From NCBI GenBank assembly GCA_030167865.1, contig JALAGF010001711.1, positions 1-55,108 of the forward strand: a stretch of DNA of 55,108 bases, written 5' to 3'. This DNA is from Craspedostauros australis. Taxonomy: Eukaryota. The position numbers and the translations under genes were made by a program. The notes beneath the pieces were generated by a model, which had not been told where the DNA came from, did not search any database, and worked only from the letters and a program-made list of their open reading frames with translations. Each line of letters begins with the position of its first letter. Position 1 is the first letter of the stretch. Below, piece after piece: positions 5,234 through 54,425 of the stretch.

Positions 5234-7597
5234 CTACGATTCCACCTTGCTGGTGAGATGGGAGAAGAATCCACCAAACCGGCTGCCGATGGAATGTCCG
5301 CTGCGGTCCAAGGACATTTCGTCGTTCCTGTTGTGCCGGCGCTTGCTGATCATGTCTGCGTTGACGTTGATCGCTGCATTGCCGTCGTTCTCGCCAGCAA
5401 CATCGTTGTTGCCATCGGTGGTGTTGTCGTTGTTGCCATCGTCTGGTGGTGTCGACGAAAATGGCATGCTACGACGTCTTGGACGGTACCGGCGCAGTTC
5501 GCGGTCCATGCATTCGATGCGCTCTTCCTTTTGCGCCAGTTGATGCGACAGGGAATCGCATTGGTTCACCAGCTCGGACTTGATGAGCTTGGACTCTTCT
5601 CGCATGGCCTCCATCTCCTGCTGCATTTCGGGGATGGCGCCGCCCTTTTCGATCTTTTGGATGTAGGCCTTGAGGCTTGCGATTTCGTCCTTCTGCTCTT
5701 GGATGAGGCTATCCTTTTGCACGATCTCTTGGCTGGCGCACGCCATCTCTCCCTTGAGGAAGAGGCGGGAGGCGGCGGGTCCGCCAAGGCCGCTGCTCGC
5801 GACAGCGCCGGAGGCAGCATCGTTCCGCTTGGCCTGCTGCAGCTGATCGTTGGCATCGTTGACTTGATCTTGCAATGTGAAAACTTCCTGTTCCAACTGC
5901 GTGACTTGCAGCGTGAAGGTTTCATTCTTCATCTGCTCCTTCTGCAGCAGCATATCGTACCGTTCCTTCTCCTTGACGAAATCGCCGCGCTGCTGTTGCA
6001 GATGGCGCTTCTCCTCGCACAGGACCTTTTCGATCTGCTGCACGTTCTTCTCGCGCTGATCGACGTAGGAGTCGCCGCCGTGCGTCATGGTGGATCGCGT
6101 GGCGCGCAGATCGTCAAAGTAGATGTTGAGCTCATCCAGCCGGCTTTGCCACGCATCTTCCTTCGCCTTGATCTGCGTCTCGCGCGTTGCGAGGTCCTTC
6201 TCCCACAACGAAAGGCATTGCTCACGCGCCGACGTGGCCTTGTCTTCCGCCTTGAGCTCTTCCTTGGCTTCTTGCACGGCCAGGCTGAAGTCGTCGCACG
6301 AAAGGTCGTCGAGGCAGGAATGGACGGAGCGGTTGGTCCGGTTGTCGATGACGGTCTTCGGGATGTCGTTGTGCTCGTTGTCGCTGATCTCGACGTCGTA
6401 CTCATCGTCGTCGTCGTCATCGTCCGTGGAAAGCAAGTCCACGGAGGTGCCGAGCGATGGATTGGAATGCTCGCTGGCCCCGATCTTGCTGCGACGGCGT
6501 TTGGCGCGTGCCTTGCGTCGCTTCTTGCTGTCTCGCTTTGGGGACTTGGCCGCAGAGCGATCCTTGCGGTTGCGGCGATCTTTGCGACGCTTCCGTCTGG
6601 CTTCGCTTTTGCTGGTCTTGACCGACAGGACGTCGCTGATGTCGTCGTCGTTGAAGGCGTAGAGGGTGTCATCGTCGGTGCCGCTGTCATTGTCATTGTG
6701 GTCGTTGTTGACGCCGTTGTTCAGGTCGTCATTGTGGTCGTCATTGAGGCCGGTGCTGTAGTACGGTGACGCTGATCCTGTGGTTTGAACATGAAGTGAG
6801 GAGGGAACTTCGAGCTGATCGAGCTCCTGCGTCGGCCTTCTGCCCCGCATCTTCCTGGACTTCTTCTTGCTCTTGGAGGTGGCCATGCTTCTGGAACCGC
6901 CCAAGGAGAGAGCGTCGAGAGATCGAGTGGCGGAGACGACGGAGGCATCGTCATCCACAGAACGTCCGGACGATTTCTTGCTTCTGGAGGACTTCTTCTT
7001 TGCGTCCCTGGCGGTCTTGGATGATTTCTTCTTCTTGCTCTTCTTCGCCCTTGTGTTGGTCGTGCAGATGCTCTTCGAGCCAAGCGTGCACACGGACTTG
7101 GTGCTGCCCAGCTTCTTGATCTTCGTTCCGGACTTCTTGGCAGGAGAGGAGGACGAAGCAGCAGAGTTGGTGATGAAATTCGAAAGGCTCTCCTTCACCT
7201 TGTCCCTGTTGGCAGCCTCGCCATGGTCGCCACCTTTGCCCACCTCCGTCCGCAGCGTTCGTTGCGATCTCGTTCGTGGCTTCGCGTGAGCAACTTCGGT
7301 CGAATCATTGGCGTAGGAGTTGCAGGAGTGCATCGTCGCTGTCATGAGGGTGTTGCTGCTCGTCTCCACGAAGCTCATGTGCGACTTGGGCTGTCGCTTC
7401 TGCTTCTTCGGTCGCAGCCGTCCGATGCTCCTCGACCGCACCATGTTGACGAGCGATCTGGCGCGGCTGCGGCTGCGCGATCGCCGTTCCACCTTCTTGT
7501 CATCTGGCAGCTCGTACGTGTTGTCCTTGCTCAGGTCAAAGTCGCGGTCCAGGCTGCGATGCGATCCTTCGCGGAACATCTTCGTGAGGCCTCTCAT
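5234..7597 (-). CDS. Hypothetical 787-aa protein: Lys/Arg/Ser-rich N-half, acidic tract, C-terminal coiled coil
   Basis: Long ATG-initiated ORF with coding-type codon bias. Basic clusters (KKSKKKKSSK, RRKRRKDRR), poly-Asp, then an E/Q/K/L heptad-rich region. Confidence 0.8.
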   Translation of the reverse strand: MRGLTKMFREGSHRSLDRDFDLSKDNTYELPDDKKVERRSRSRSRARSLVNMVRSRSIGRLRPKKQKRQPKSHMSFVETSSNTLMTATMHSCNSYANDSTEVAHAKPRTRSQRTLRTEVGKGGDHGEAANRDKVKESLSNFITNSAASSSSPAKKSGTKIKKLGSTKSVCTLGSKSICTTNTRAKKSKKKKSSKTARDAKKKSSRSKKSSGRSVDDDASVVSATRSLDALSLGGSRSMATSKSKKKSRKMRGRRPTQELDQLEVPSSLHVQTTGSASPYYSTGLNDDHNDDLNNGVNNDHNDNDSGTDDDTLYAFNDDDISDVLSVKTSKSEARRKRRKDRRNRKDRSAAKSPKRDSKKRRKARAKRRRSKIGASEHSNPSLGTSVDLLSTDDDDDDDEYDVEISDNEHNDIPKTVIDNRTNRSVHSCLDDLSCDDFSLAVQEAKEELKAEDKATSAREQCLSLWEKDLATRETQIKAKEDAWQSRLDELNIYFDDLRATRSTMTHGGDSYVDQREKNVQQIEKVLCEEKRHLQQQRGDFVKEKERYDMLLQKEQMKNETFTLQVTQLEQEVFTLQDQVNDANDQLQQAKRNDAASGAVASSGLGGPAASRLFLKGEMACASQEIVQKDSLIQEQKDEIASLKAYIQKIEKGGAIPEMQQEMEAMREESKLIKSELVNQCDSLSHQLAQKEERIECMDRELRRYRPRRRSMPFSSTPPDDGNNDNTTDGNNDVAGENDGNAAINVNADMISKRRHNRNDEMSLDRSGHSIGSRFGGFFSHLTSKVES

Positions 7598-8578
7598 CGT
7601 GTATGACTATGGAGCCGTCTCGTGTCGCAGAGGAGGACAGCAATGAAGATGGCGCCAATTCTCGGTTTGGCTGTTGCCTATTATAGTATACTCCTCGATC
7701 AATTATTCGAGTAGGTATGTTTATGATCACGGATGCAGCGTCTAGATCTTGGTCGATGCTTTCTCAATCCCGTACCAGTTGTCGATCGAGTATGATCTCG
7801 TGCGCAACGGCTCCAGCTTCTCTGCTTTGCGCGTGCGATTATGTGTGCCTGTCGCAATGGCTTCACACAGCAAGAAAGAAATGAAAACCATGATGTTTGT
7901 TTCGTCAAATGGATTCTCGAGGAGCCTCATCACTCCTTTACTTGAATTTCTGTTCGTGGCTCGCAACACCACGACCACGTCCGCGACGGGACGGGACGAT
8001 AATTTGCAGGCGCGTCCAACACAACAACACGCAACCTGTTGCCACGATCGTATCACGAATCGCTTCTTCCGCTTTGCCTGCTTCACCAGCATGCGCTGAG
8101 CAAGGAGTAATTTCGTCGTTTCGTGCATCAGTTCAGAAAAGCAAGGGCACATCCGAATCGTGTCGCATGGCTTAACTCGTGCTTGACGGCCAATTATGAC
8201 TGGTAGCGCCCTGTCAAAGAACTCCATAAGAGGCATTTGTTGAATTATCACGTGGAAGAATGTCCGAAAGAAAAAGACATCTTCCTGGGCCTTTCCTTGA
8301 AGCCGTTCCGAAAACAACAAACACGCCCAAGTACTTTTCTTGCTTCCGAGCTGAAGCCCAATCGCGAAACCAATCAGCTCGCTTTCGATTGGTTGGACCC
8401 AATGTCATTATCAAGAGTGTCCTTTTTATCCATTCGCATCAATTCAACAAATAGCCATTACTTACGTCTGTACATTCACCCGTTCAGAAATCCAACGGTC
8501 GAATCCCATTTTTCAGACGTGTGTTCACTCAAAAGCAATCGTACCACATGGAATTTGCCCGTCAAACCAACGCGCGCA

Positions 8579-8756
8579 GCTCACATTTTTGGCAAGCTGT
8601 CACAAGATCCACAACAACGGTCCTATCGCCAACATCCGCCACACTGACTATCAGCCATCATCAGCAACAACAAGACCGTCCACACTGACAATTCGTGCCA
8701 ACATCGACAAAATCCTCCACCGAGGTTCCCAAGTCTCAACCCCTGGCCAAACTCGA
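8579..8756 (+). promoter_or_regulatory. Conserved non-coding block upstream of silaffin-like gene copy 1
   Basis: Shares ordered motifs GCTCACATTTTTGGCA, GTCACAAGAT, ATCGCCAACA, TCGTGCnAACAnCGACAAAA, TTCCCAAGTCnCAACC and TGGCCAAACTCGA with the reverse complement of 54651-54821. Regulatory function is inferred. Confidence 0.65.
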
Positions 8757-9219
8757 AGGTCGATGACCGATTCAGCTCTTCCATCAGGCATCTGTGATGC
8801 CCAAAGACGGGACTCGTACGGATGGCGGCCGCGTGCGCAGAGGAGGCATGTACTCTGTGTGCGTATGCGTGCCTGAGGGTGATGCTATGTGCATTGGCGA
8901 CTCCGCTGTGGCGCAGGAGAGGATTGAGGTGCATGAGGATGTTGCGTTTTGTGAGGATGATGTCGCGGTGCATGCAGACGTTGCGGTACATGAGAACATG
9001 CCCTTCTCATGGCTCCAAGTTGCAACGGATAGATCAACGGCTCCTTCGATCAACCAGCTCCCTTGTCAGAAATTCAATCGCAGCAGCAGCAGTAACAGCG
9101 GTCGCAGTACCAACATCAACTCTCTCTCTCTCTCTCGCACACACTCGCATACATAACCAAGAGACCCAACGACACGCACTACACATCCCAATCACAGCTC
9201 TGCCAATCACCTGCCAACC

Positions 9220-10703
9220 ATGAGAATCTCTCCGCTCTCCCTTCTCTTCGTCGCCCTTTCCAACGTCGCCATGACGAACGGTCAGGAGCCAAGCAGTACT
9301 CCATCGGAACTACCATCAATTCTTCCATCTGCAGTGCCATCCATATCGGTAGCCCCGTCGGTAACGCCGTCGGCGACACCATCGGCTGCACCATCAACTG
9401 CACCATCGGGTACACCATCGGTTGCACCATCGACCGCACCATCTGGTGTCCCCTCCGGTGCTTCGGCGTCCGCGATGCCATCGGTTACACCGTCGGTTGC
9501 ACCATCGGCTGCACCGTCGGTTGCGCCATCAAGTGTTCCAACGGCTCTTGCGTCAGCTGCACCTTCCAGCGTCCCCTCCAGCGCTTCGGCGACCGCGTCG
9601 CCGACGACCGTACCGTCGACCGCACCATCGAGCATCCCATCGTTCACATTATCCACCGTACCATCGGCCACGCCGTCAACCCTGCCTTCGTCCGTGCCAA
9701 CGAGGACATCAGCGCCAACTGCCACCTTGTCGGACACGCCCTCTCTCAACCCAACGGTATCGACCTCCCCATCCACACAGCCATCTGTCTCCCCGACCGA
9801 CCTGCCAACCATCAGCTCGAGGCCAACAATGAACATGACCAGCGCGCCGACCATGGCCAACATGACCACATCGATGCCAACATCCATCAACATGACCGAC
9901 ACCAACACGTCAACGCCAACGCTCATGCCGGTCTTCACAGCTGCTCCAACCATGAAGAGCATCAAGTCCAGCAAGGCACCAAAGTCCAGCAAGGCGCCAG
10001 AATCCAGCAAGGTGCCAAAGTCCGAGAAGACATCTAAGTCGGAGAAGTCAGACAAGTCCACGAAGGAGCCCAGCGATTTGGACACTTCCAAGAGCACCAA
10101 GGCACCTACCAGCTCCAACGACTCCAGCTCCAGCCTCGGCAACATGACGCCCAAGACGCCAAAGTCGTGGAAATCCTCAAAGGTCACCAAGGAGCCAAGC
10201 TGGAGCAGCGACAGCACGGACGCCATCTTCGACGTGCCAAAGACCCCCAAGAACAGCAAGACCAGCAAGACGTCGAAGGATTTCACCATTGCCATCGTCA
10301 ACGCTAGCTCCACCGCCACCGCGAGCCTCAGCTCCACCAAGGTGCCAAAGGCTTCCAGCTCCTCAAAAACATCGAAGGGTTCATCGAGCGCCATGGCTCC
10401 AACCGCCGGATCAGGGAGCCTGCCGACACCGATCGTCGGCACAAACAAATCATCAAAGAATAGCTCCGTGGATAGCTCCATCCAGAGTTCGAAGGAGAGC
10501 TCCAAGGATTCCAAGAGCGCAAAGGTACGTCAAATCTGAAGCCTACGCTACAGTTAACCCTCCTTGTGTATGTGTGTGTGTGTGTGCCTCGATCGATCGA
10601 ATAGCCAACAATCAAGCACTCACCCTCACCTTCCATCCATTCATCAAACCCCATCTTTTCGTGACTTCCTCATTACCTCCTCCTACATCTGCATGTACAG
10701 TAA
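9220..10703 (+). CDS. Secreted silaffin/mucin-like protein (signal peptide, PSxxPS repeats, Ser/Lys KxxK domain); exon 9220-10524, probable intron 10525-10700, stop 10701-10703 (unspliced ORF ends 10539)
   Basis: MRISPLSLLFVALSNVAMTNG signal peptide, many PSxx tetrapeptide repeats, and KSIKSSKAPKSSK (5 Lys in 13 aa). A phase-0 AAG|GTACGT donor and TACAG|TAA acceptor are present. Confidence 0.8.
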
Positions 10704-11789: not shown

Positions 11790-13568
11790 ATGAAGTTGAA
11801 CATGATGCTCTTCGCCGCTGCGATGGCTGCGCTGCGATCAGGCAGCAACGTCGGCGTGATGGGCTTCTCGCCGAGCTGTTCGCTGCGTACTCTCAACGCT
11901 TTGCGTCCGCCATCTTCTGCGACGACCAGAGCTGCAACGAGGCTGTTCCAATCGGTCGCTCCGCCCGATGCCCAGATGGACACCGCTTGCAATTCGAAGG
12001 CGAAGAGCAAGGTTCCCATCACGCTGCTCTCTGGATTCCTCGGATCCGGAAAGACAACTGCCTTGCAGCATCTGTTGGAGAACACGGACGGGGTCAAGAT
12101 TGGCATCATCGTCAACGACGTTGCCAGCGTCAACATCGATGCCAAGCTCGTCTCGTCCTCCAGCTCGGCGCAGAAGCTGGACGGTGCCGGTGGCGTTGTG
12201 GAACTGCAGAATGGCTGCGCTTGCTGCAGCTTGGCAGACGAAATGCTGGCCAGCATCGACCAGATCCTGTCGAGCCGCAGCGCGGACGATCCCCTCGATG
12301 CGATCGTCATTGAACTTTCCGGCGTTGCCGATCCGCTCGCCATCCAAGCGAACTGGCAGCAAGCCTTGGTGGCTGGAGTTCCAGTCACCAGCAAGGCGGA
12401 TGTCTCCCAGGTGGTCACCGTCATCGACTCCTCCACCTTCGGCACGGACTGGATGACTTGGGACACGGCAGGCGAGCGATCCGGTTGGACGGATGAAGGC
12501 GAGAATTGTTCCGGACAACGCAAGGTACCAGAGCTGTTGGCCGAGCAGGTGGAGTCCGCCGACCTCATCCTCATGAACAAGGTCGACATTGCTGGTGGCG
12601 ACCAAACGAAGATCGCCACGGCGCTCGCCAAGCGGCTCAATGCAAAGGCCTTCCTCGAGGAGACGACATTCGGAAAGATTTCCCCGCAAAAGATCCTGTC
12701 GAATGACTACTTGACGTCTGTCCTGGAATCCAAGGAGGAGGGCAAATGCAGCAACCCTGGATGCGGCAATCCCGATTGCTCGTCATCGCATTCTCACGAT
12801 CATGATCACGCGAGCCATGCCGATGATAAGCCAGCTGAGGAAAGCACGAGCTGTTCCGATCCCGATTACATCGACGAATCGGAGTCGCACACGCACTCGC
12901 ACACGCACTCGCATGCCACATCCACCGACAACCTCGGCATCGTGAATTTCGTTTACAAGGCGTCGCGCCCGTTCAACCAGAAGAAGCTCATGACGGTGCT
13001 GAACACCTGGCCGGTCCCCATCAAGGACAATCTTGACATCACCCTTCTGGATGACATGAACGCAGGAAAGCCGATTCCCACCGAGAACGGCAGCCTGATC
13101 GATAATCCTTTTGTCGGCGTTCTCCGCAGCAAGGGATTCTGCTGGTTCGCTCCCACGCGGTGGACCGGCGCAAGAGAGGATGTTTGGCGCCACGACACCG
13201 CCATGTTCTGGAGTCACGCTGGCAAGCACTTCGGCATTTCATCCGCCGGCAAATGGTGGGACAGCATCTCCAAGGAGCAGATGAAGAAATACTTCAAGAC
13301 CAACAAGGGTGAGTACGAGCGCATCCTCGACGAGGACTTCATGACAGAGGAGTTCGGTGATCGTCGGCAGGAGATCGTCTTCATCGGTGTCAATCTCCTT
13401 GAAGAGGAGATCCGCCAGGCCCTCGACAGCTGTCTGGTCACCGAGAGGGGAATGAAACGCTACAGACAGGCATTGCAGAACTGGGAGCTTTCTGTCATGG
13501 GCAGAGAACACGGCGGACCAAGCCTCTTCGATGTTGGCAGCGTCGATCACATGGATGTCAACAAGTAA
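11790..13568 (+). CDS. COG0523 / CobW-family (G3E) metal-chaperone GTPase, probably plastid-targeted
   Basis: Walker A GFLGSGKTT, VNDVASVNID, GCACC metal motif, IELSGVADP, NKVD, His-rich insert, RSKG and FGDRRQEIVFIG (CobW_C). N-terminal hydrophobic leader followed by VMG-FSP (ASAFAP-like) and a Ser/Arg/Ala transit-like segment. Confidence 0.93.
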   Translation: MKLNMMLFAAAMAALRSGSNVGVMGFSPSCSLRTLNALRPPSSATTRAATRLFQSVAPPDAQMDTACNSKAKSKVPITLLSGFLGSGKTTALQHLLENTDGVKIGIIVNDVASVNIDAKLVSSSSSAQKLDGAGGVVELQNGCACCSLADEMLASIDQILSSRSADDPLDAIVIELSGVADPLAIQANWQQALVAGVPVTSKADVSQVVTVIDSSTFGTDWMTWDTAGERSGWTDEGENCSGQRKVPELLAEQVESADLILMNKVDIAGGDQTKIATALAKRLNAKAFLEETTFGKISPQKILSNDYLTSVLESKEEGKCSNPGCGNPDCSSSHSHDHDHASHADDKPAEESTSCSDPDYIDESESHTHSHTHSHATSTDNLGIVNFVYKASRPFNQKKLMTVLNTWPVPIKDNLDITLLDDMNAGKPIPTENGSLIDNPFVGVLRSKGFCWFAPTRWTGAREDVWRHDTAMFWSHAGKHFGISSAGKWWDSISKEQMKKYFKTNKGEYERILDEDFMTEEFGDRRQEIVFIGVNLLEEEIRQALDSCLVTERGMKRYRQALQNWELSVMGREHGGPSLFDVGSVDHMDVNK

Positions 13569-14381: not shown

Positions 14382-16221
14382 ATGATGACCATGATGAAAA
14401 CGACGTTGGTCGTGCTGCAACTCCTCAGCATCTTCGCATCCGCCGAGGCATGGGACAAGGCGAACTATGGATTGCGACGTCTCGACATATCTGACGACCT
14501 CCACATGGCCAGGAGGGTCCGTAGGTTGCATGACAACAGCAAGACATCGAAAAGCACCATCGATACCAACTCCACCAGCACCAACTCCACCAGCACCAAC
14601 ATAACCAGTTCCAAGACATCGAAGAGCATAATCGACACCAACGCCACAATCACAGAAATCACAACCTTGTCCAGCGGCAAGAGCGCCAAGCAGTACAAGT
14701 CCGCCCCCACCAAGCGAAACTGCGGCATCAGTAAGTCAACAGCAGCTCGGTGACGTTGACACACCTCATTTCTGACATCTTTGCGATGGCTGCTTTGAAA
14801 TACTCAAGATTCGCCCCCATATCAAACTTCATCCGGTTCGATGTCCCTGAGCGCATCCACCTCCCATCCTGCCCATTCATCCACTCCATCCACTCCGCGC
14901 ACTCAGTTGGTTCTCCCTTCCCTTTCCCTTTCCATGCTTCATTTCACCATGTTGATCGGTCTGCATGGCTGTTCGTCCATCACTGCCCACATGTCCTTTC
15001 CTTTCATATCGTTTCATATCGTTTGCCTTCGCACTTGACATGGTATGATTGCCCATCATTGCACTGCTCATCTGCGATCTCCATGTTGCAGAGGAGAAAA
15101 CCGATAAAGTGGAATTCAAGTGCAAGGCGGAGACGGAGACCGATGACGGTAGTGAGATCGAGGATGAGATCAAGTTCACTGTCTCGTCCAAGGATGAGGA
15201 ACCGCTGACGGTCACGATCGAGTACGAGCAAGAAATCCAAGCCGTCGTCAACGATACCGAGACCGAGACTGAGACCGCCACCAAGTTCGAAGTCGAGTTC
15301 GACCGCATCATCGAGTATCGCAAGGCCAACACCACCGCCAATATGACGAACACGACCGGCAATAAGTCCGATACTGACGAAAGCGCAAACGCATTCGATT
15401 GGGAAGAGGACATCATCGTTCAGGAGTTCGAAATATCAGACTGGACTGCCTTCGCTCCTGTCATGGGGGACGCCAACTCCTCCACATTCTCCATTTCCAC
15501 CGAGGATGGCGTCGTGACCTTCAATTTCACCATCGCCCACGCTGACACCAACAACGTGACTGCCAACGAGATGAAGATCGACTTCGACCTGAACAACTTC
15601 CCATGGAATTCCACTGATACTTACGTTGCGCTGATATGCTCCATCGAGTCAGAACGTTCCATCGAAGTGGAATTCAGCGACACCAGCAGCGGCTCCCCTC
15701 CGGGCACGACGAAGACGGCCACTGATGTCAAGATCAGCTTCGATGACGCGGTGGATACTGTCGGCTTCACCCCCTTCGGAGCATACACCTGGGTGGACTA
15801 TGCCGAGGTGAGCGATGATAACTCCACAAGCAACATGACAGCCGTCGTCGCGACATCCTCGACGGAGGATAACTCCACAGAGATTGCTTTCTCTTTCGTT
15901 GGGGCGTCGGCGATGACCGCATCCGACATCTTCTGGGATCCTCAGGCAGGTATTGGTTACGGCGATGAGCTGGTGACCGCCGATGAACCCGACGACGACG
16001 AGGGCGACAGCAGTAGCCCCCCAGCCACCGGTGACAACACCGATCCAAACCTGAACACGGACTCAGACACCGGCGGTGGCGGTGGCACAGAGGATGATGC
16101 CGCGGATGATGGCAACAATGACAGAAGCAGCAGTGTGAGCGTCACCGGACCTTTCGGTGTTGTATCATGCGTGGTGTTGCTGATCGCTGGTGCTCCTGCT
16201 GCGCTTGCAATGCTGGGATAA
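14382..16221 (+). CDS. Secreted acidic protein, ~492 aa, with RXL propeptide motifs, KxxK segment, beta-rich domain and GPI-like C-terminus; exons 14382-14730 and 15092-16221
   Basis: Signal peptide ending ASAEA; two RRL motifs; GTAAGT donor at 14731 and TTGCAG acceptor at 15091 join the two ORFs in frame (A+AG=Lys). D/E/T-rich body; hydrophobic C-terminus with no cytosolic tail. Confidence 0.82.
14731..15091 (+). other. Spliceosomal intron, 361 nt
   Basis: GTAAGT donor, pyrimidine-rich body, TTGCAG acceptor; frame-restoring. Confidence 0.8.
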
Positions 16222-18760: not shown

Positions 18761-20320
18761 TCACCGTCTCCCTTCCCTCTGCATGCGATGAAGGTCGCGG
18801 CCATGATCGTCATGGCTGTGGTCGGTGGTGTTGTGATCGTCGCCACCGGTAGTGTGTGCGCCATCCCTAAGAGACGACAGGAAATGGAAAGACTCTTCAT
18901 CAAGCGCCCGTGCCAAACGCCCGATGTTGGATCCGGATGTGATGTGAAAATCTCGAGGGGGTGTATTCGGCGACAGCTGAGATCTGGGACTTGCCAAGCC
19001 CATCGTCAGCATCGATGATCCCAGGCTACGCTGCGAGCTGTCGAACGTCGAACCGGATGGTACGTTGTGCGCTGGAGGTGTCTGGTGTGGCGGAACGGTG
19101 ATGGGATCAAACGGCATGTCGTTAGCCGACGACGATCCTGTCATGTCCTGGTCCGTCACGGAAGTGTGGATAGATCCCATACTTTGGTTCAGACTGGCGA
19201 ATGCCGACGAGGGTAAATGCGATGCTGCCCTGCCGAATGCGCCTCCTGCATGTTCTTGATCCGCCTTCATGTCTTCGCGTATTGGTGATGTTGCGGAGTC
19301 CATCCTATTCGTATTTACCGGGTTTTGTACTTCTGGCTGGATGGATTGCCAGGGTGCCATCCACGAGCTATTCGTGTCGAGGTTGCCGTGTAGACCTTGC
19401 TGGATCTGACCGACTTGATGATACTGTTGTTCTTGTCGCTGCTGTTGTTGCTGTCGCTGCTGCTGCTGTTGTCGAAGTTGTTGTTGCTGAAGAGATTCCG
19501 CGAATAACTCGTACTCATGCCTGTTCCTATGCTCATCGCCGTGCGTGTTGTGCACCTCCTCTGCGGCTTCATCGTCATCGCGGAAACCGTCAACGCGCGA
19601 AGATACACCACCCATAGTCACATCGCCGAGATCATATGATCCATCCTCCTGGAGGGCCTGTGCCCCCCTCAACCCTTGCATGTTGTAGATGGATGCAAAT
19701 TTTATGTCGAAGATGCGGCGGTCCTCCTGTTCTTGCTTCCATTTCTCGAGCTCGCGCTTGTACCGCTCCCGCTCGACCATTGCCTGTTGCTCGTATTTGG
19801 ATCGAGATGTGGGACCCAGCACTTTCCACTTGGATGCGATCGTTTTAGCAAGGCCTGCGAATCCGATCTTGGGTTTGCGGGCACGCCCCTTTCCATCGTG
19901 TGAAGGTTTCGGCACAGACCGCAAAGCAGGTATGGACGTAGACAACGGCGGCGGCGCTGCACTGGGCTCAACGTCGGCTGTGCTTGAGTGCAACGTTCCC
20001 TCGTTGATCATGTTCTGCCTTTCATCGGCGAAGAAGATGTTGTAAGCGGACAGAGGACGCTTGGGCATGTCCTTGGGCTTCTTCCATTTCCGCTTTCTTG
20101 TTCGCTTGGATTTGGGCGCAGTGGCACACGACGACGGTGACGCCGACTCCTGATTTCCGTCCATCGACGTTGAAAAGTCAGCGGAGGGATACGGAGCTAT
20201 TTGAGATGCTGACGCAAGTGCAGGCGCAAGTACAAGCGCGGAACCTAACACAGTGGAAGACGCGCCGTGGCTTTCTGACGTTACTTTCGATTCGATCGCA
20301 CTCTTGCCTGAATCTGCCAT
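18761..20320 (-). CDS. HMG-box DNA-binding protein (~519 aa from first in-frame ATG)
   Basis: KPKDMPKRPLSAYNIFFADERQ ... GFAGLAKTIASKWKVL ... KYEQQAMVERERYKRELEKWK is an HMG box, followed by a poly-Q region. The ORF-track start at 20662 is TTG, so ATG 20320 (or a later ATG) is more likely. Confidence 0.9.
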   Translation of the reverse strand: MADSGKSAIESKVTSESHGASSTVLGSALVLAPALASASQIAPYPSADFSTSMDGNQESASPSSCATAPKSKRTRKRKWKKPKDMPKRPLSAYNIFFADERQNMINEGTLHSSTADVEPSAAPPPLSTSIPALRSVPKPSHDGKGRARKPKIGFAGLAKTIASKWKVLGPTSRSKYEQQAMVERERYKRELEKWKQEQEDRRIFDIKFASIYNMQGLRGAQALQEDGSYDLGDVTMGGVSSRVDGFRDDDEAAEEVHNTHGDEHRNRHEYELFAESLQQQQLRQQQQQRQQQQQRQEQQYHQVGQIQQGLHGNLDTNSSWMAPWQSIQPEVQNPVNTNRMDSATSPIREDMKADQEHAGGAFGRAASHLPSSAFASLNQSMGSIHTSVTDQDMTGSSSANDMPFDPITVPPHQTPPAHNVPSGSTFDSSQRSLGSSMLTMGLASPRSQLSPNTPPRDFHITSGSNIGRLARALDEESFHFLSSLRDGAHTTGGDDHNTTDHSHDDHGRDLHRMQREGRR

Positions 20321-29195: not shown

Positions 29196-30015
29196 TTACA
29201 ACTCCAGGAAGTCAAGATCCTCCGATGCATTCCATTTAAAGGATTTGTCGGTCTCGGGGACTGGTGAAAAGTCGAAAGATGAGAGGCTTGCATTGTTGTT
29301 GCTGTTGTTGTTGTTGTTGTTGCCCGTGCCGATGGAGTCCATTCCACCGTTCTTGGGTGAGATAACTTGCTGGAAAGAGTTGCCTGGCTCGACGGGCTTG
29401 GGCGGGACCGTTCCACTGGAAACAGAATCGACGGGCAGGACGGAACGGTCGGTCACCTGTGGCGACACGACGTGGCTGCTGCCGTTGGTCTTGGTGGGCA
29501 TGTCGAGGTTGTTCACGCTGCCCAGGGGCACATTGTTGCGCACGGCGTTTGCCATTACGTCTACCAATGCCAGCTGGTCCTGTGGAAACTGCGGTTGTTG
29601 TTGTTGTTGTTGTTGTTGCTGCTGCTGCTGCATTTGCATCGCCTGGATGTTTGGAACTGACGATGATGTGGTGTTTGGGAGCGGCGTGCCCTTTGCGACC
29701 ATTGGCAATCCTGTCAACGGGACGTGCTGCGCCGTTTGCATTGCATCGGAGACGACAGTACTTGTGTTGAGATTGCCCTGCGGCTGCGATTGCATGTTCA
29801 ACCCTGCTTGCAGTTGGGATTGGGCGCCCATTCCTGTCCCTCCTGTTGTTCCGGTTGGATACTGCATCGAGCTGCCATTCATGGAAGGGATTCCCATGGG
29901 CGGCATCAGATTGTTGCCTTGGTTGTTGAGATTGGTGTTGGCCATGTCGATGGGTATGTCACAGGCAGGGAGATCATCAGAACCCATCATCATGAGTGAA
30001 TTGATGTTGTCGCCG

Positions 30016-30058
<43 letters not shown>

Positions 30059-31406
30059 GGTTGCTGCTGTGCAGGCTGCTGTCTAGCGACAGCGCATTGT
30101 TCATCATCATGCTGGTCATGCCCGAGCTACTACCGCCGGTGGCGGCGTTGTTGCTGTGATTGGATGTGGCGCCGATGGCATTCATGCCGTGGCTGCTTCC
30201 ATTGGCCATGCCAGGTGCCATGTTCGCATTGGCGGTTGCCACGCATCGCTGCATGACCTGCCTCACGGCATTTCGCACGATCAGTTTGATCTGATGGCTG
30301 AGGCCCTGCAGGAAGGACTCCATGTTCATTGTGAAGGAAACGTGCGAGAGCTTGTTGGAGTTCCCGTTGGTGTGGAGCGCCGCGTCCATGTAGCCGAAAA
30401 GGTTCCCGTTGGTGTTGACCTGGATGGGACTTGATGGTTCACCAAGGATGCTGATGTCCATGGTCACTTGCTGCGTGATGACCACCATGAAGCCCTGTCC
30501 TGGGATGCACATGAGGGACGATTCGTTGCCGCCGTAGGCCATCTGGAACCGATTGACGATGGTGGTGGCTTGGACGAAGGGTTGCGAACCGTTGGTATCT
30601 CCAGCGGCGTTGCTGTTGCCGTTGGTCCCGCCAGCACCGTCGGCGCCGCTGCTGCCATTCTTAAGCCGCTTCATGGCCAGCAACAAATGCTGCAGTATCT
30701 GCTTCATCGCGAGCCGGTCCATGGCTTGCTGTTGATGTTGGAACCGCTGCTGCTTGGCCTGCTGAGATAGCAGCACGAAGTAGGATCGCAGCCTGGAATG
30801 CAGCAGGGATTGGAACGTGTCATAGATGTTGGAGAGGATGAACTTTGGGATCATGGGGATCTCCATCAGCGATGCGTGCAGCGGTTGCGCCAGGTTGCTG
30901 GCAGCAACCCGTTCCAACGAAGGCTTGTCGTTGTGCTGCTTGGCAGCTGCCGACTCTGGTGAAGATTGGTGTTGCTTGAGGGAGTAGCACGGGAAGGTCC
31001 AGCACTTGGTGCCGTTGCCAGTGTTGGCGCCTCCGTTCATGCCTGCGTTCATGGGGTTTGGGTTGGGCTTGTTCATCGCGGGGGCAGACATGAGGTTGGC
31101 GAGTTGGTAACCAGATCGCAAGCCTGGTGGCTCCTCCAACGCCCCCGTCTGTGGGTTGTAGGTGATGGCGCATGCCATCGACGAAAGGCAGGTCTCCACC
31201 ATGGCACGTTCCGCTGGGGAGGCTGGCATAGTCATTGGCGCCATTGGCGGTTGTTGCTGTTGTTGCACTTGCAAGTGCATCTGCTGCTGCTGCTGCTGCT
31301 GATTGTGTTGTTGTTGATACTGCTGCTGCTGCTGCTGTTGGTATGGGTTCATCTGAAAGCTCTGCTGCTGCGCTTGCGCCTGCTGTTGGTGATTCGATGG
31401 CATCAT
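29196..31406 (-). CDS. Q/N/M-rich low-complexity protein (~736 aa) with a central ordered domain of unknown function
   Basis: Long ORF; first in-frame ATG at 31406 (MMPSNHQQQ). Poly-Q and poly-N tracts flank an ordered segment LSNIYDTFQSLLHSRLRSYFVLL...VSFTMNMESFLQGL. Confidence 0.8.
30015..30056. repeat. (GTT)14 coding microsatellite (poly-Asn on the minus strand)
   Basis: Perfect trinucleotide run read directly. Confidence 0.95.
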
Positions 31407-35223: not shown

Positions 35224-38200
35224 ATGAGCAAACACAACGGCACGGCGGACGATGGCGCGGAAGCGTCCACAAATGGGACCTCGTCCGACAGCCAGAATCC
35301 GGAAGACGCAGCAGCGTCACCGGCAGACATCAACGACAAGGATGATGCCGCCGCAAAGGACGGCAAAGACAACAGCGATGGCAAGAGGAAGATTTCCAGC
35401 GCGGATTGGCCGCTGAAGAACATCAAGGAACCCCACGAGAACGATGTCATGTACGGCCGCGGTGGCGGTACCAACCACCATCCTGGCAACAAGCGATACC
35501 GCAAGCTCGTGGAGGAACGCAAGGTCGACTACGTCATGAGCAAGCGTCTCGACAAGCCCCTCGTGGCGCTCGACATCATCCGCCAATGGAGGGCGCAGGA
35601 TCCGCCGGGCCGATTCCTCAAGCTCGACGACAGCACGGGCCTCTGGAACGACGTCGGCGACAAGAAGGCCAGGGAGAAGACGTCGCAGGCGCTGCGTGAA
35701 AAGGCCCCGTCCATCCGCAAGCAGCAGGAGGAGGAACGCAACGCCAAGATCGTCGAGGTGCCGCTCAATGGACAGGTGAGGAATGATCGTGTCATTGCAT
35801 GTCATGTCGGTTTGCTTTCGTTTGCTTTGCGGTTGTGAACGCGAGTGAGAATGGATCATGGCGTATTCGAGGAGTGAAGACGCTGGATGATGGACTGTGA
35901 TGTGCGGTACAGCGAGCATGCCTTTGATCAATCCGCCTCAAACTTTGTTTTCTCCTCTTTTCCACCTCCTGACTCGTATGCAATTACATTTGTTCACCAT
36001 CTCGGCCACACACGCATCTTGTGCACAATCACCAATCAACCAATCGCCTTCGTGTCGCGGTGTGTTTCTCCACACGGAAAACGCAACTCAAAATGGCGCC
36101 AAATGGGGAATGAATCACCACTCCGCCCACTCTTGTTCACCATCACTTCTTCATCACGCACATCACATGGACATGCCAAACGCACTCGTACACAACCGCA
36201 CTCGTACACAACCGTACCATGCACACTCGTGATGATCATTGCAAATCAACAGAACGGAAGCGCCAGCAGGTCACCTTCACGACCAGATGGGAACAACAAG
36301 ATGGAAGTAGATCAAGGAGGCCAGGTCAAGCGACCATTGCTTGCGCGCGATCACACCTTCGGCAGAGAGTTCTTCGGCGAAGGCGAGAAGCTCTCGCTTG
36401 ATCGGTTTTCGTGGCAGGAGCCGTTCCAAAGCAGCAGGAGCATATCCTTCAGCAGCATGGGGTCGTTGCCTGGGATTTCAGCCGCGGCAAGAAGCGGAGC
36501 GCAAACGAGCAGCGGCGGTGGTGGTGGTGCTCCGGTGCATCCCACGGCCCCTCCGCCGCCTCCGCCTCATGCTGTGTACACCGCACCGGCAGGCAGGACC
36601 AGCAGTCACGGCAGCATGGGCATGCACCCGACCTACCACACCAGCGTTGGCGGACCTCCTTCTCACATGCACCCGCCACCGCCGCCTGACTACTACGGCA
36701 GAGTCGCCAGCAACAGCAACGAAGACAGGAGACGTCGATTCTCCAGCGGACGCTTCGAAAGCTGGGGATCCATCGGCTCGTTGAGCAGCCTCCAGCCCTT
36801 CCCCAGCACTGGCAGCATCGGCAATCGCTCCGGTTCCTTCAGCGGGCCCCCGCCACCAGGTCAGCACGGTGCGGGAGGTCCACCGCCGCCACCGGGTGCG
36901 TTCAATCACATCCAGCGATCGGGATCGTGGACGCAGCCTCCCGTACCACCGCTGCCATCGCGCGGTTCAACGCATCAGCGATCCGGCAGCTGGTCCAACG
37001 GCAGAGAGCATTCGCTGCTCATGAATCCGCTCAGCCATGCATCCACGGCGCTTGCCGCATCGCCATTCGACGCGAACGGAGGCAGAACGGGATCGGGCTA
37101 CTGGGCGGCCAATCCTCCCCCTCCACCACCCCCAGGTGCGTACGGAACGTCGATGCCACCGCCACAGGCAGTCATGCCACCTCCCAACGGATACCCCAGC
37201 CCATCCATGTCGCAACAGCAGCAGCAACCACCGCCAATGCAGCAGCCCATGGGACCGTACCGCGAACCCAGCAACAACCTGTCACCGTACGGCGGTCGAT
37301 CGCCGGCCAACAGCAACGGCACCAACAGTCCCAGAACAGATTCCAACATCATCCCACCGGCCCGATCCCATCACAACCGAGGCGGCGACAACGCAGCGGC
37401 AAGTGCCCCGTCCACGCCGAATTACAACGTCGATCTCAGCATCGCAAAGACTTGGTCCGGTGGTGGCGGCGATGTGCGCAGAAGCTGGTCGGGAGAGGAT
37501 CCTGGGGCACCAACGGACTGGAGCAAGGAGCAGTACGAGAGACCGTTGAATGACACGGCCGGTGGACGATCGGCGCGCAATGGCACATCCAGAAGCCCCA
37601 TGCGGGCAGGCACACGCCGCCAACAACAGCAGCAACAACGACACAGGCAACAACAGCCTCCAGCTTCGATGGGATTCGGCAATGATCTTGGCGGCACCGT
37701 TCCAAAGCCAGGCATGGTGAAGCGCGACACCTCCCACCAGAACGAGAGCCGCGAAACCAAGCCGTCGATCAAGCGCGCGACTCTGAGTCGCGACCAAAGC
37801 GAAACGTCGAACAGGCTGAAGCAGCAGTACCTGCCCGAATTTTACGACGGCGTCAATAACAACGGCGGTGCCAGGTTCGACAAGGAAATCCGCATGCTCA
37901 GCGACAACCTCGAAGAGACCAAGCTGAAGGACAGAGGCAACTTCGCAGACAGCGACGGCAAGCGCGTCAAGCCCAAGCCTCTGGGCAGCGCCGACCGGCT
38001 CAGCACGGTGGACAAGATGACGTTGGCGTTCCTTGACAAACCTGAACCGCTTCTGGAAGACAATCGCACAAGCACGATCGATGCGCTTGACCTCAACCTG
38101 GAAGACGACAATGGCAGCATCTTGCCAGCCTCGGATATGATGCCGTTGCCACCGGATGTCGTGCAAGGATTGAACACCGATGCGGCATCGCCATCAACTT

Positions 38201-38962: not shown

Positions 38963-41900
38963 CTACTGGATGCAGCAGTGTACCGAGTTGCGTCTCTTCT
39001 GCTTGTCCTTCTTCCCTTTCTTGTTCTTGCTCTTCTTCTTCTTCTTTTGCTTCTTTCCAATGCTGCCACCAGTACCACCATCTGGCTCCGTCGCTTTGGT
39101 CGGCTGCGTCTTGGCAGTCTCCTCGTCACCATGGAAGGGGGCACCGCATTTCTCATGATCGTTCGGAATTTCACGTGGCGTCAAATTCGTGGCAGTGGCC
39201 GGCGTTCCGTTTGGTTCCAGCTTCTTCTGATCCGTCTTGGGCAAGTCCAACGAAGGCAACGGCGGTCCGCTGGACAGCGGGATGCCTTCACCGTACTCCT
39301 CCTCTTCAATGTCATCGTGAATGTCATCATCCTCCTCGTCCTCAATATCGCTGCTGTCTTCTTCGCGGAGGCTGATGCCCGAACACGACGACATGGCGGA
39401 TGGTTGCCGATTCACATCGCGCTGCGCGTGGATGGAGACGCCCGTTGGCGAATCATTGACTACGAAGGATCGAGAGGATTCGTCGTAGGATGTGTCGTCG
39501 ATCTCGTTGCTGAAAGCGACCGAGTTGGGTTCTGCACGGCGATGATTCCCACCGTGTCCGCGGTGTTGATGGCCGACAGAACCGTCGTGAGAATGGCTGG
39601 ATCCCATCGACGGGAAGCGGAGGTTCATCCGCAGTCCGTTGGGCATGTGCTTGCAAAACCCCTTCTGATGAGAAGACGAGGATGCGGATTGCGTTGTTGT
39701 GGATGTCGCATTGCCTCCGCCAGCCCCTGATCGATGCTTGTCACCGACCAACCGACCGCGCAGACCTTCTTGAATCTTCTTCGTTCCCTGATGCAGCGTC
39801 TTGCTGGCGGATTGCAGCAGCACGCGGGGAACCTTCTTCACGATTCGGAACGCAGCCTTGATATCTTCCTCATTGAGCACGATCTTGCGTTTGTTGGATC
39901 GCGCCAGTTCGGAGGACAGCATGCGTATGCGCTGCCATCGAGCATTCTGCAAGAAGGGGTGCTTCAAGCATTCGCCGACGCCGGCGCGTTTGGTGGGGTC
40001 CTTTTCCAACGCTCGTTTCAGCAGATCCACCAAGGAATCGCTGAGACCCAACCCCGAGTAATCAATCTCGTCGTTCACGATCTGATCAAACAGCTCGGTG
40101 GGACTCTCGGAATAGAACGGCAGCCGACCGGTGACGAAGATGAAGAGACAAATGCCTGCCGCCCAAATGTCGGCGGCATAGCCCGAAAATGCCTTGGATC
40201 CAGTGCCTTCCCTGCGCTTGCAGATCTCCGGCGCCCAAAAGCACCACGTACCCTCCGTCTTGGATATGAGTCCATGGTTCGGCATGCGCGGCATGACCAG
40301 CGCGGTCTCCGTGTCCGAACGCGTGAGGAAATGTGGATGATGCGGCGGTGAGCCGATCTCGTCTTGGGCTGTTTCGGATGCGGAAACGTCGCCATCCACG
40401 GCGCTGGAAAGAGCCAAGCTGGCATTGCCGCTGCTGCTGCCGCTGGTATGCTTGGGCATCAATCTTCGTCGCAAAGAAATGCCTCTGTTGCTGCTTTCCT
40501 TTTTGCTGAGAATCGGCATCGACGGACTCATGGGGAGGAACTTGGATCTCATGGAATGCGCATCTCGGTTGGGATCATGCACGCTGGATGGAGTCTTCAC
40601 CATCCCAAGTGCAGGCGACGTCAATGCCGATGCCGAGTGCGAAAATTCATGCAACTTGTGCTGCCGATGGGGCGTCGTGATTTTGGGCGTGCTTGCCGGT
40701 GTTGTGGGTGGCGTGATGTTGGGAGACGAAGCTGGTCGATCTCCCGACAGCGAAGACATCTTCTTGTGCAGCATCGGCCGTGAATGGTTGGAGTGTTCGG
40801 ATGTGGCGGCCGCGGTCTTGCCATGACTCTTTTGGCCAAAGCTGCTGTCATCGTCACCTGAATCCACAAAGCACATATCCGATTCCTTCTCGAACAAGTG
40901 CGAAACGCCAAAGTCAGCCAGCTTCGCCACGCCGCGCGCATCGAGGAGGATATTTTCTGGTTTGAGATCGCGATGGATGACATGATGCTGATGCAAGTAG
41001 GCCAGACCGTGCAGGATATCGACGAAGTAGAATGCGGCGTGCTTCTCATCGAAGTGCCCATCGACCAGGCTCGCATCCGGAGACAAGATGTCCTTCATCT
41101 GACCGCGCCTGTGCGACGATGAGGAATGCGGCGAGAATGGATTCTGCCGGCGATGGCTGCTGCCTCGACTTCTCCAGCTGCTGAAACCGCTGGTATCGGA
41201 AGCGTTGTCGCTCTTGACTTTGCGATGGAATGTGCCAGTTTCTTCCTTGTAGCTGAGGATCTCGCCCAGCGGCATGTACTCCAGGACCATGTAGAGCATG
41301 TCGGATTCGGGTGAATCCAGCACGTCGTACATGCGGATGATGTTGGGATGGGACAGCTTCTTCATGAGCGCAACCTCCTGTTCGACTTGATCCAACGCGG
41401 TGGAAACCTGCATGCGGCGTCGCTGTCCCTTGGCAACCACCATGGTTCTCTTGCGCTTCAAGAGCGACTTGTTGAAGATCTTGACTGCGACCATTTCATC
41501 TGGCTCGGCAAGGCTGTTCTTCCTCCGCCTTCTGCCGTGGCTGCTGCTGGTGGTGGTATGATTGTTGCCAGTGTCATCAAGTTCTGTCATATCAAACGAC
41601 CGTCCCCCGCGCATGGAATAGAATTGCTGTGCCGCACTGGCGTGGTTGTCATTGTTGTGATGGTCGCCCCACTTGATGGTGGAAGTTTTCTCCGTTCTCG
41701 TTTCATCCGCTTTCGCATTTAGATTGTCGGTTGCGTCAATTTTTGGATCGGCCTCCGTCTTCGCATCGCCGCCAAAGAGATCGCTGCCCGTCGGCGCGGA
41801 CAGACTCTTCAATCGCCGCCGTCTCTCCCGCCTGCTCTTTTTGGGTGGCGTTTGGTCGTTGCTGGGTTGTTCTGCGGATTGAAGGGACGAATCGAAGGAA

Positions 41901-42601
41901 GTCGTCTTTGCCTGCTGCGGTGTGGTGTGCTTGGGGTTCTTCTTGAGACTGGAGATGCCTTGGCTGTGCTGGCTGCCGGCGCTGTCGTGCTTGCTGATGC
42001 CATGACTGCTTGAACTCAACGTCGTTGGCTGCGCGTTCGTTTGCTGATCCGAGTTGGAGTAGTCGTCGGAATAGCGTCTCGCCTGCTTACGTCGTCGTCC
42101 TGCGCGCCAGCCGTAGCCGGTGTTGTTGTTACTGCTGCTGATGCTGGTGTTATTGCTATTGCTCGTGCTGTCGAAGCTGTTTGGAGTTGCGACCAGGTTT
42201 GGGGTGGTCGCAGAAGGGGTGGCGATGGGTTGGATGCGACGTGCGAGCCGCACAGTTCCGTAGGCGCCCTTCCCGAGAACACCGTCGACGAAGATGAGAT
42301 TCCCGACACGACAGACATTGCCTTCGTCGTCGTAGTCTTCGTTGAGGGAGGAGGTGGAATGCTGCAGCGTCATGTGCGCGTTGGAATGCGACCGTGAATT
42401 AGGTGAGAGCGGTGGCGGTCTGCTGGCCGCGGTGCGGAATGGAGACTGCGGCAACTGCGCGTGCGAGGCGTTGAGGAAATCATCCTGGCTGTTGATGGAG
42501 TCATGGTTGTTGCTATTGCTGACGTTGCTGTTGTTGGTGTGGTTGATGCTGGTGCTGTTGTTCCCGGTGGCAAAGTCGCTCGTCGGGGATGAGGAAGCCA
42601 T
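38963..42601 (-). CDS. Ser/Thr protein kinase, CAMKK/SnAK(GRIK)-like, ~1212 aa, with large low-complexity inserts and polybasic-CaaX C-terminus
   Basis: LGKGAYGTV, VAVKIFNKSLLKRKR, EVALMKKLSHPNII, HRDLKPENILL, LADFGVS, GTWCFWAPE and ADIWAAGICLF motifs; ends KKQKKKKKSKNKKGKKDKQKRRNSVHCCIQ. The ORF-track start is GTG; first ATG is 42601. Confidence 0.92.
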   Translation of the reverse strand: MASSSPTSDFATGNNSTSINHTNNSNVSNSNNHDSINSQDDFLNASHAQLPQSPFRTAASRPPPLSPNSRSHSNAHMTLQHSTSSLNEDYDDEGNVCRVGNLIFVDGVLGKGAYGTVRLARRIQPIATPSATTPNLVATPNSFDSTSNSNNTSISSSNNNTGYGWRAGRRRKQARRYSDDYSNSDQQTNAQPTTLSSSSHGISKHDSAGSQHSQGISSLKKNPKHTTPQQAKTTSFDSSLQSAEQPSNDQTPPKKSRRERRRRLKSLSAPTGSDLFGGDAKTEADPKIDATDNLNAKADETRTEKTSTIKWGDHHNNDNHASAAQQFYSMRGGRSFDMTELDDTGNNHTTTSSSHGRRRRKNSLAEPDEMVAVKIFNKSLLKRKRTMVVAKGQRRRMQVSTALDQVEQEVALMKKLSHPNIIRMYDVLDSPESDMLYMVLEYMPLGEILSYKEETGTFHRKVKSDNASDTSGFSSWRSRGSSHRRQNPFSPHSSSSHRRGQMKDILSPDASLVDGHFDEKHAAFYFVDILHGLAYLHQHHVIHRDLKPENILLDARGVAKLADFGVSHLFEKESDMCFVDSGDDDSSFGQKSHGKTAAATSEHSNHSRPMLHKKMSSLSGDRPASSPNITPPTTPASTPKITTPHRQHKLHEFSHSASALTSPALGMVKTPSSVHDPNRDAHSMRSKFLPMSPSMPILSKKESSNRGISLRRRLMPKHTSGSSSGNASLALSSAVDGDVSASETAQDEIGSPPHHPHFLTRSDTETALVMPRMPNHGLISKTEGTWCFWAPEICKRREGTGSKAFSGYAADIWAAGICLFIFVTGRLPFYSESPTELFDQIVNDEIDYSGLGLSDSLVDLLKRALEKDPTKRAGVGECLKHPFLQNARWQRIRMLSSELARSNKRKIVLNEEDIKAAFRIVKKVPRVLLQSASKTLHQGTKKIQEGLRGRLVGDKHRSGAGGGNATSTTTQSASSSSHQKGFCKHMPNGLRMNLRFPSMGSSHSHDGSVGHQHRGHGGNHRRAEPNSVAFSNEIDDTSYDESSRSFVVNDSPTGVSIHAQRDVNRQPSAMSSCSGISLREEDSSDIEDEEDDDIHDDIEEEEYGEGIPLSSGPPLPSLDLPKTDQKKLEPNGTPATATNLTPREIPNDHEKCGAPFHGDEETAKTQPTKATEPDGGTGGSIGKKQKKKKKSKNKKGKKDKQKRRNSVHCCIQ

Positions 42602-42847: not shown

Positions 42848-44320
42848 CGGTTTGTCGTGAGGAACGCGATGATCAGTGAGCGTGGATACAGTATGGTTGG
42901 TATGTGTAGTAGTAGTATGGGTTTGGGTATTAGAATAGTATGGTATTCCTGAGCGCTTTGCTCGGTCTCTCTTGTTCTGTCGACTTTGGTCCGGTTCGGG
43001 ATGGCAGACAGAAAGCAGAAGGAGGCGATGCACTGGTCGACTCTGTGCAGATCAGAGAAAGCCCAATCAACCGATGGACGGTGCCAGTCCGTCCACCAGC
43101 CCACCAAAGAAGCGGAGCGCGCCAAGCGGGGCAGCGATGTTTGTGCGCGGCGGAGGCTCTCTTTGTCTGCGGATGTGCTTCTTGAGGGTCTTTCTCAAAG
43201 CGGATGTGAGTGTTGCTGTGAGTGTTGCTGTGGTGGGTGCTGTGATGGACAAAGGAAAGTAGAATAGTATACTCTTTGTATTTTAATAGGAGAATTTGGT
43301 GATGTGCAGATCGTAGAGTAGGTGTTGTCGTTGCGAAACAGAGATGTCGTGGTCGTTGTGGACTCTGTGTAGTACGAGTATCGGAATGGTCGAGAGATCG
43401 TATTCCAGAGAGTGAAGTTCAGCGTCGATGGCCAAGCAATGCTTTGCGGTTGTCCTCTGCGCAAGACGACGTCCTTTGTCCTGGCTTGTCGAAGGCAATG
43501 GAGGCGACAACAACAACGACGACGACAACGAGGCGCTGTGATGGCGATGTGTGTTGCATGTGCAGGCGGACAGCCATGCGACGTTGTCTGCGTTGTGACC
43601 AAAATCATCAACGATGTCTCGCAGAACGATGTTCTGCTTCCGATCTGCAAAACGGTGCAAATACGGTCGACGTTCGATGTAGTACATATTGTACACAGAC
43701 CATACACAAAAATAGGGCGAATTTCGATAACTGGTGTTTAGATGAAGATGTAGGTATCTTGAAACACGAACGATCCCCACGCATGAGCGACCACGATGCG
43801 AACACCAACGAAAGTCTTCGCAGAGAAGACATCAAAATTACGAAGCAGCGAAGCGGACGGCAGCGAACGAACGCGACTCAGAACATCTCTCTCTGTCTGT
43901 CTGTTCGTGGATCAGCGATCTCTCCATGCAAAGCAGGCACCGCCAACAACTGTTGCCATCGTCATCGTCATCAGCGCTCCTCATTCTCGTCACAATCCTC
44001 AAGAGACGCTGCACAACCACATCCATCTCTTCCATCCCATCCCATCTCACTCCACCACAAGAACAGGCTGCCGAAGATACGAGCGCAGCAGGAAGAGAAG
44101 CAAGTCGAATAGAGCAAGAAGGTGCGGAGCCTTCCAAGCAAGGTGACACAGGCCTCCTGTCTCTCTTTCTCTCTCTCTCTCTCTCTCTGACAAGTGGAAC
44201 TACGACTCCACAGCTTCCGTCGGAACAGAATCACAACCACCTCCGCAAAACAGCCACACGACAAACGCGAGGCAAACTATGAGGCCCCACGCCCCCAGAC
44301 TCCACCCCATACAAGCGACA

Positions 44321-54335: not shown

Positions 54336-54379
54336 GGTGGACGGCGTTGGCTGGTCTGATGAGGTTGTCGTTTGCGGTA

Positions 54380-54380
<1 letters not shown>

Positions 54381-54425
<45 letters not shown>
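54381..54425. repeat. (GCTGTT)n hexamer microsatellite in the 5' leader of the second silaffin-like gene
   Basis: About 7 units read directly. Confidence 0.9.

Follow-up and report, generated by a model that had tools for sequence, protein, structure and literature searches.

The window analysed here is the whole 55,108-nt stretch of contig JALAGF010001711.1 (assembly GCA_030167865.1) from the diatom Craspedostauros australis. It holds two genes on opposite strands, A and B, each preceded by one copy of a conserved non-coding block (Table 1). Judged from their sequences, the two genes are paralogs. Their predicted products, P0001 and P0002, begin with a near-identical, hydrophobic, signal-peptide-like N-terminus (MxISxLSxLFVALSNVAxTNGQ), continue through a PS/PT-repeat region and finish in an S/T/K-rich half full of KxxK. 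Searches of Pfam with the two proteins returned the PT repeat alone, under the cut-off. A profile search with the paralogs gave 248 matches, driven by the PT repeats, the best covering 40% of the query at 46% identity, with no true ortholog among them; a search with the signal-peptide region (residues 1–40) among proteins of 136–436 aa returned no match.

Table 1. Positions, in the window, of the two paralogous genes, the elements of their upstream regions and other genes
Feature	Position	Strand	Remark
Gene A ORF (P0001, 439 aa)	9220–10539	+	24 KxxK, 6 pentalysine clusters
Gene B ORF (P0002, 249 aa)	53586–54335	−	13 KxxK, 0 pentalysine clusters
Conserved upstream block, copy A	8579–8822	+	m1–m6 and weaker conserved tail 8757–8822
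Conserved upstream block, copy B	54579–54821	−	m1–m6 and tail to 54579
m1	copy A 8579–8594; copy B 54821–54806	+; −	exact match
m2	copy A 8599–8608; copy B 54801–54792	+; −	exact match
m3	copy A 8625–8634; copy B 54781–54772	+; −	exact match
m4	copy A 8693–8712; copy B 54710–54691	+; −	exact match
m5	copy A 8726–8741; copy B 54680–54665	+; −	exact match
m6	copy A 8744–8756; copy B 54663–54651	+; −	exact match
Non-alignable interval, copy A	8823–9194	+	372 nt; G/T-rich stretch 8823–9010, (CT)8.5 at 9120–9136
Non-alignable interval, copy B	54359–54578	−	220 nt; mostly (CAA)10 at 54576–54547 and (CAGCAA)7 at 54425–54384
Second conserved patch, copy A	9195–9306	+	last ~25 nt of leader and signal-peptide codons
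Second conserved patch, copy B	54249–54358	−	last ~25 nt of leader and signal-peptide codons
CobW/G3E GTPase gene	11790–13568		
HMG-box protein gene	18761–20320		
Protein kinase gene	38963–42601		split-looking kinase domain (3 stretches)
RING-finger protein gene	44279–45652		

The first-pass annotation had called both genes silaffin-like. As set out in PMC5501833, SFLPs are recognised by a signal peptide, repeated KXXK (X = S or G; 1–6 residues apart) and RXL; a pentalysine cluster (five non-consecutive K within 12–14 residues) is also an SFLP criterion, and 14 SFLP/KXXK proteins, TpSIL1 included, additionally carry PT repeats. P0001 and P0002 are like these proteins in their signal-peptide-like N-terminus, PT-type repeats and KxxK tracts. 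Unlike them, neither contains an RXL protease site (0 in each), and P0002 also has no pentalysine cluster and no strict K[SG][SG]K, of which P0001 has four (all KSSK, two of them 2 residues apart). On composition, the silaffin-like label appears to hold in part only: P0001 is a fair fit and P0002 a loose one.

Both open reading frames finish with the identical 9-mer AAG/GTACGT (10516–10533, +, and 53602–53585, −), with the stop 3–12 nt further on; the GT falls at 10525 and 53594, and the word resembles a good splice donor. The true C-termini of the two proteins may therefore lie in downstream exons, the endings KVRQI-stop and KVR-stop being read-through. No conserved downstream exon was found in the 3′ flanks of the two genes. 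Gene A has a divergent neighbour, a 787-aa ORF (5234–7597, −; ATG at 7597) that is K/R/S/D-rich, includes a long coiled-coil-looking region and has no Pfam match. The two share the intergenic region 7598–9219, within which a further ORF (7742–8236, −) looks spurious.

The conserved block as an island of homology

We searched both strands of the whole window for the six motifs, m1–m6, that the first-pass annotation had reported in order upstream of gene A and again, on the minus strand, upstream of gene B. Each has two exact matches and none besides, so the recurrence stands to the base. When up to two mismatches were allowed, m1, m4, m5 and m6 still had only two matches each, and the 10-mers m2 and m3 picked up chance look-alikes (5 and 16 matches, respectively, at ≤1 mismatch). 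Order and orientation are identical in the two copies, and start-to-start spacing from m1 to m6 agrees within 6 nt (20/26/68/33/18 nt in copy A, 20/20/71/30/17 nt in copy B). Because there are only two copies and these are homologous to each other, shared order and spacing are inherited and carry no independent evidence. In copy A, 463 nt separate the end of m6 from the ATG at 9220; in copy B, the distance to the ATG at 54335 is 315 nt, in agreement with the earlier estimates of ~460 and ~315 bp. The motifs occupy the extent first assigned to the block, and homology runs ~65 nt beyond m6 at lower identity, to 8822 and 54579.

The resulting block of ~245 bp is 68.8% identical over 253 columns (sensitive blastn, locus against locus, E 3e-26). 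It outranks every coding HSP and is thus the strongest similarity between the two loci. Its Smith-Waterman (SW) score of 75, against 10.3 ± 1.5 in shuffles, was equalled by 0 of 300. Beyond the window, scans of metagenome contigs with the m1+m2 and m5+m6 patterns gave 0 matches each, and a scan of viral contigs with the m1+m2 pattern likewise gave 0.

The DNA around the block behaves differently. Neither the 5′ flanks of the two loci (SW 12, equalled by 32/300 shuffles) nor their 3′ flanks (SW 14, equalled by 13/300) align, and the duplicated unit, as judged from these unalignable flanks, is one gene only. Between block and gene, the first-pass annotation had described the DNA down to the ATG as diverged. 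This is correct for the interval next to the block, where copies A and B reach an SW score of 20 and match solely at a CAG/CAA microsatellite. It does not extend to the last ~25 nt before the ATG, which together with the signal-peptide codons form a second conserved patch (81% over 90 nt; SW 58, equalled by 0/300 shuffles). The block is therefore an island of homology: beyond those ~25 nt and the microsatellite, the rest of the non-coding DNA in the duplicated gene unit fails to align.

Simple repeats are conspicuous in the intervals. In both genes a CAG/CAA tract lies about equally far from the ATG (9075–9120 and 54432–54388). In copy B, the (CAA)10 tract directly follows the block on its 3′ side and the (CAGCAA)7 tract is closer to the ATG. 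The G/T-rich stretch is specific to copy A, with a C+A content of 0.37 against 0.63–0.67 on each side; it holds loosely repeated GTGCATGAGGATG-like units, on which TRF makes no call, and probably represents either an inserted segment or a minisatellite in decay.

Constraint or a neutral relic

We place about half of our confidence in the reading that the block is a retained upstream promoter module, a set of gene-control sites shared by the two paralogs. Under this proposal, a single ancestral gene would have undergone an old inverted duplication, and the block would be the surviving part of its upstream control region. The ancestral gene would have encoded a secreted PS/PT-rich, KxxK-rich cell-surface protein, possibly associated with the frustule. 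Purifying selection would retain six to eight short DNA words in fixed order and at near-fixed spacing, ~245–640 nt before the start codons, while the spacers and the DNA from the block to the start codon would be free to change. The conserved words would be transcription-factor binding sites placing both paralogs under the same expression programme. This is close to the first-pass annotation's view of the motifs as phylogenetic footprints, of which the non-coding island and the clumping of matches into motif-sized runs are borne out; mean identity does not clearly exceed that of 4-fold degenerate sites in the coding segments that align reliably.

To quantify the clumping, we counted matches in the aligned block, 168 of 248 columns with gaps and 168 of 226 without. 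Perfect runs measure 16, 13, 10, 10, 10 and 8 nt. Five runs of at least 10 nt were observed where 1.5 were expected; the number of columns in runs of at least 8 was attained in 180 of 20000 permutations of the match string, and the sum of squared run lengths in 540 of 20000, bearing in mind that gapped alignment may itself produce apparent clumping. Spacers within the block keep their length, and their identity falls to near-random.

For a neutral yardstick we used the 4-fold degenerate sites of codons that specify the same residue in both paralogs. The block is more conserved than all such sites taken together (50/99 identical; p=0.003 when gaps are counted, 4e-5 when they are not). When only sites outside the PS repeats are used (30/50 identical), the excess loses significance (p=0.33 and 0.055, respectively), and at the N-terminus 9 of 13 sites are identical. 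The first-pass annotation had set its own reading against identity equal to synonymous divergence; on these figures the block departs from that equality only in part.

It is somewhat unlikely, though a reading of real weight, that the block is a functionless relic of the duplicated unit, a part still spared by indels and microsatellite growth, whose identity runs are chance plus alignment artefact. The block's identity of 68–74% is indeed close to that of 4-fold sites in the reliably aligning coding segments (60% overall, 69% at the N-terminus; p=0.055–0.75). The unalignable interval is dominated by fast-evolving simple repeats and the insert specific to A, the sharp 5′ edge of the block may be the duplication breakpoint, and the longest run by itself is unremarkable, being attained in 2453 of 20000 permutations. 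Against this, five runs of at least 10 nt arose in just 75 of 20000 permutations, and the spacers inside the block are near-random yet length-preserving. Moreover, 184 nt of A (9011–9194) and 220 nt of B, both bracketed by homology, align only at the microsatellite, although DNA so bracketed should still align at 60% neutral identity. We consider it probable that the block is under constraint. The case derives from the contrast between the island and the unalignable bracketed DNA, together with the clumped matches; mean identity is not its basis.

Promoter module, leader exon and weaker readings

A promoter module would be expected to lie upstream of the transcription start, and here two features of the DNA give opposite, indirect hints. 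The first is the distribution of ATGs. Copy A has 15 ATGs within 8763–9009 (13 of them in 8823–9010) and none in the last 210 nt before the start codon; in copy B the final 180 nt are likewise free of ATGs. Under the scanning model, such a distribution agrees with transcription that begins downstream of the block. The ATG-free leaders alone are not significant (shuffle P 0.15 for A and 0.25 for B), and long ATG-free leaders were also seen at other large ORFs of the window. The second is base composition. The C+A richness of the sense strand that marks leader and coding sequence (0.62–0.71) begins at the 5′ edge of the block in both loci, with 0.63 in the block vs 0.54 in its flanks.

This second hint favours an alternative that we consider unlikely overall, in which the block is a non-coding first exon (5′ UTR) followed by a 5′ UTR intron, transcription starting at the TCACA words of m1 and m2. 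The exon would have been retained while the intron diverged freely. The putative intron would run from a conserved GTAC at the end of the block (~8813 in A, ~54585 in B) to a CAG 20–22 nt before each ATG. In both copies homology breaks off at GTAC.GA, a word common to the two, and picks up again precisely at that CAG (9195–9197 and 54358–54356), and the putative intron DNA, 385 nt in A vs 234 nt in B, is unalignable. In A it contains 13 of the 15 upstream ATGs of the locus, which splicing would remove. Upstream of the putative start there is no homology between the loci.

The TCACA words also fit the diatom Inr-like element TCAH+1W, described for FCP and CA1 genes (PMC4686930), and are found in m1 and m2 of both copies. 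Unlike the published element, which is placed 26–61 bp before the translation start in that work, the TCACA words of the block stand 465–640 nt before the ATG. TCAH+1W is also of low information content, since it is present in 67.9% of 80-nt flanks (PMC4686930).

Several other features speak against a leader exon. The putative donors are poor (CTC/GTACGG in A; ATG/GTACCG in B, with C at +5) by the general eukaryotic consensus. Upstream ATGs that are not conserved between copies occur inside the block itself (2 in A, 4–5 in B), a UTR would be less likely to show motif-sized clumping, and RNA-structure signal is absent from both block copies. As a donor word, GTACGT is not enriched in the window, with 27 sites vs ~27 roughly expected (2 × 55108 / 4096). 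We also sought Pfam domains split between open stretches, as a way of defining splice signals, in 103 of the 208 open stretches of at least 110 codons, and found none.

Far less probably, a small RNA gene or a piece of a mobile element or dispersed repeat sits before both genes by chance and accounts for the block. The block edges are sharp, and TTTGGC(C)A occurs close to both block ends, in m1 and in reverse-complemented m6, but this end similarity spans just 6–7 nt. A dispersed repeat unlinked to such genes, a possibility raised in the first-pass annotation, does not match what the window contains: two copies across 55 kb, one before each paralog and in the same position and orientation relative to it, and a next-best blastn match to the block (E 0.036) that is low-complexity. 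We performed an Rfam search on the two upstream regions, resulting in 3 matches, all at E ≥ 1.9, far under gathering scores and outside the block. No tRNA was found in the block, and the fold z-scores of its two copies (+0.95 and +0.94) indicate that both fold worse than most shuffles. A known or stable RNA was rejected for the block on these null results.

The weakest reading, which we dismiss, is that the block is coding, either as an exon upstream of the gene or as a conserved upstream ORF. In both copies one frame stays open across it (the open stretches, 8355–8873 and 54901–54335, span 173 and 189 codons) and gives similar peptide words over m1–m5. However, between m5 and m6 this frame is shifted by a 1-nt indel; no frame is both open and in register in the two copies; substitutions by coordinate phase (position mod 3) number 20, 25 and 13 (p=0.14), which is no 3-periodicity, with the fewest at the third codon position of the shared open frame; gap lengths (1, 2, 2, 1, 1, 2 and 6, 1, 2, 1, 3) are mostly non-multiples of three; no ATG is common to both block copies; open frames over the copy A upstream region have no Pfam match at E ≤ 1e-4; and the long ATG-started upstream ORFs, which terminate at each ATGA, encode unrelated peptides (E 12). 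Long open frames are expected here by chance because C+A-rich DNA is poor in stop codons. The block is non-coding, as the first-pass annotation had held.

Candidate control words and known diatom systems

Returning to the promoter-module reading, we inspected the conserved runs for recurring words and found two TCACA and three GCCAA/TTGGC. The upstream region of A holds 7 copies of GCCAA/TTGGC (2.2 expected) and that of B holds 6 (1.7 expected, at the window rate); the count is exploratory, the word having been picked after the data were seen, and serves as a lead only. Among the counted copies are some at mutually non-homologous positions adjoining each ATG. In copy B, m6 carries the palindrome TTGGCCAA. 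Of the two copies of m4, only that of copy B contains ACCGAC, known as the core of a plant AP2/DREB site; copy A reads ATCGAC.

Tentatively, these words could be assembled into a dedicated multi-site promoter module that times the expression of a lineage-specific pair of PT-/KxxK-rich frustule proteins. A possible composition, proposed with equal caution, is the paired TCACA, three GCCAA/TTGGC (one within the TTGGCCAA palindrome) and three further unique words. Promoter pieces kept between paralogs are an ordinary result of gene duplication.

Upstream DNA of a cell-wall protein gene has been implicated in control in another diatom, Thalassiosira pseudonana, where TpAP2-1 binds the TpCinW2 and chitinase promoters; the same paper describes knowledge of such regulators as “in its infancy” (PMC13643027). 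The putative role of the block is alike in kind. Both the species and the genes differ from that case, and nothing ties the block to an AP2 factor. The first-pass annotation's remark that few cis-elements are defined for diatom silicification genes accords with that paper, in which the regulatory components of frustule genes are presented as barely defined (PMC13643027); the open-access literature searched yielded no cis-element defined for a silaffin or cingulin promoter. A second point of reference is the Pseudo-nitzschia multistriata genome paper, which reports “a small number” of diatom conserved noncoding elements and proposes that they are regulatory (PMC5485032). Like these, the block is short non-coding DNA, probably conserved above background. 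Unlike these, which are orthologous and shared across species as reported there, it is common to two paralogs within one genome.

For a cingulin of T. pseudonana, expression timing is reported to decide its final location in the wall (PMC9650480). On that basis, the block, if it is indeed a promoter module, would be one of the earliest cis-modules to be defined in sequence for genes that pattern the diatom cell wall. At ~245 bp and with six sharply delimited words, it is a testable candidate set of control sites, with evidence so far drawn from one paralog pair in one unannotated diatom genome.

The window contains a third small secreted candidate (14382–14753, +; 123 aa), with a hydrophobic N-terminus, an S/T/K-rich composition, 4 KxxK and two RRL (RXL-type). 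By the RXL criterion, it is nearer to silaffin-like proteins than either paralog. We sought the motifs in its upstream DNA, where they are absent; that DNA has nothing in common with the block.

Finally, we surveyed the remaining open frames of the window. Pfam at 1e-4 on the first 103 of the 208 open stretches returned the HMG box as sole match. For the CobW-family ORF, the nearest Atlas clusters are in Bacillariophyta, and its best named relatives are diatoms at 51–60% identity (Cylindrotheca, Nitzschia and an MMETSP “Staur...” entry), which marks the host as a diatom lacking any close sequenced relative in the collections searched. Throughout the window, trinucleotide tracts of GTT/CAA and of CAG abound (repeat family D1, 58 copies; for example 29270–30073, 19404–19502 and 37213–37658), and because of these tracts there are many long spurious open frames on both strands.
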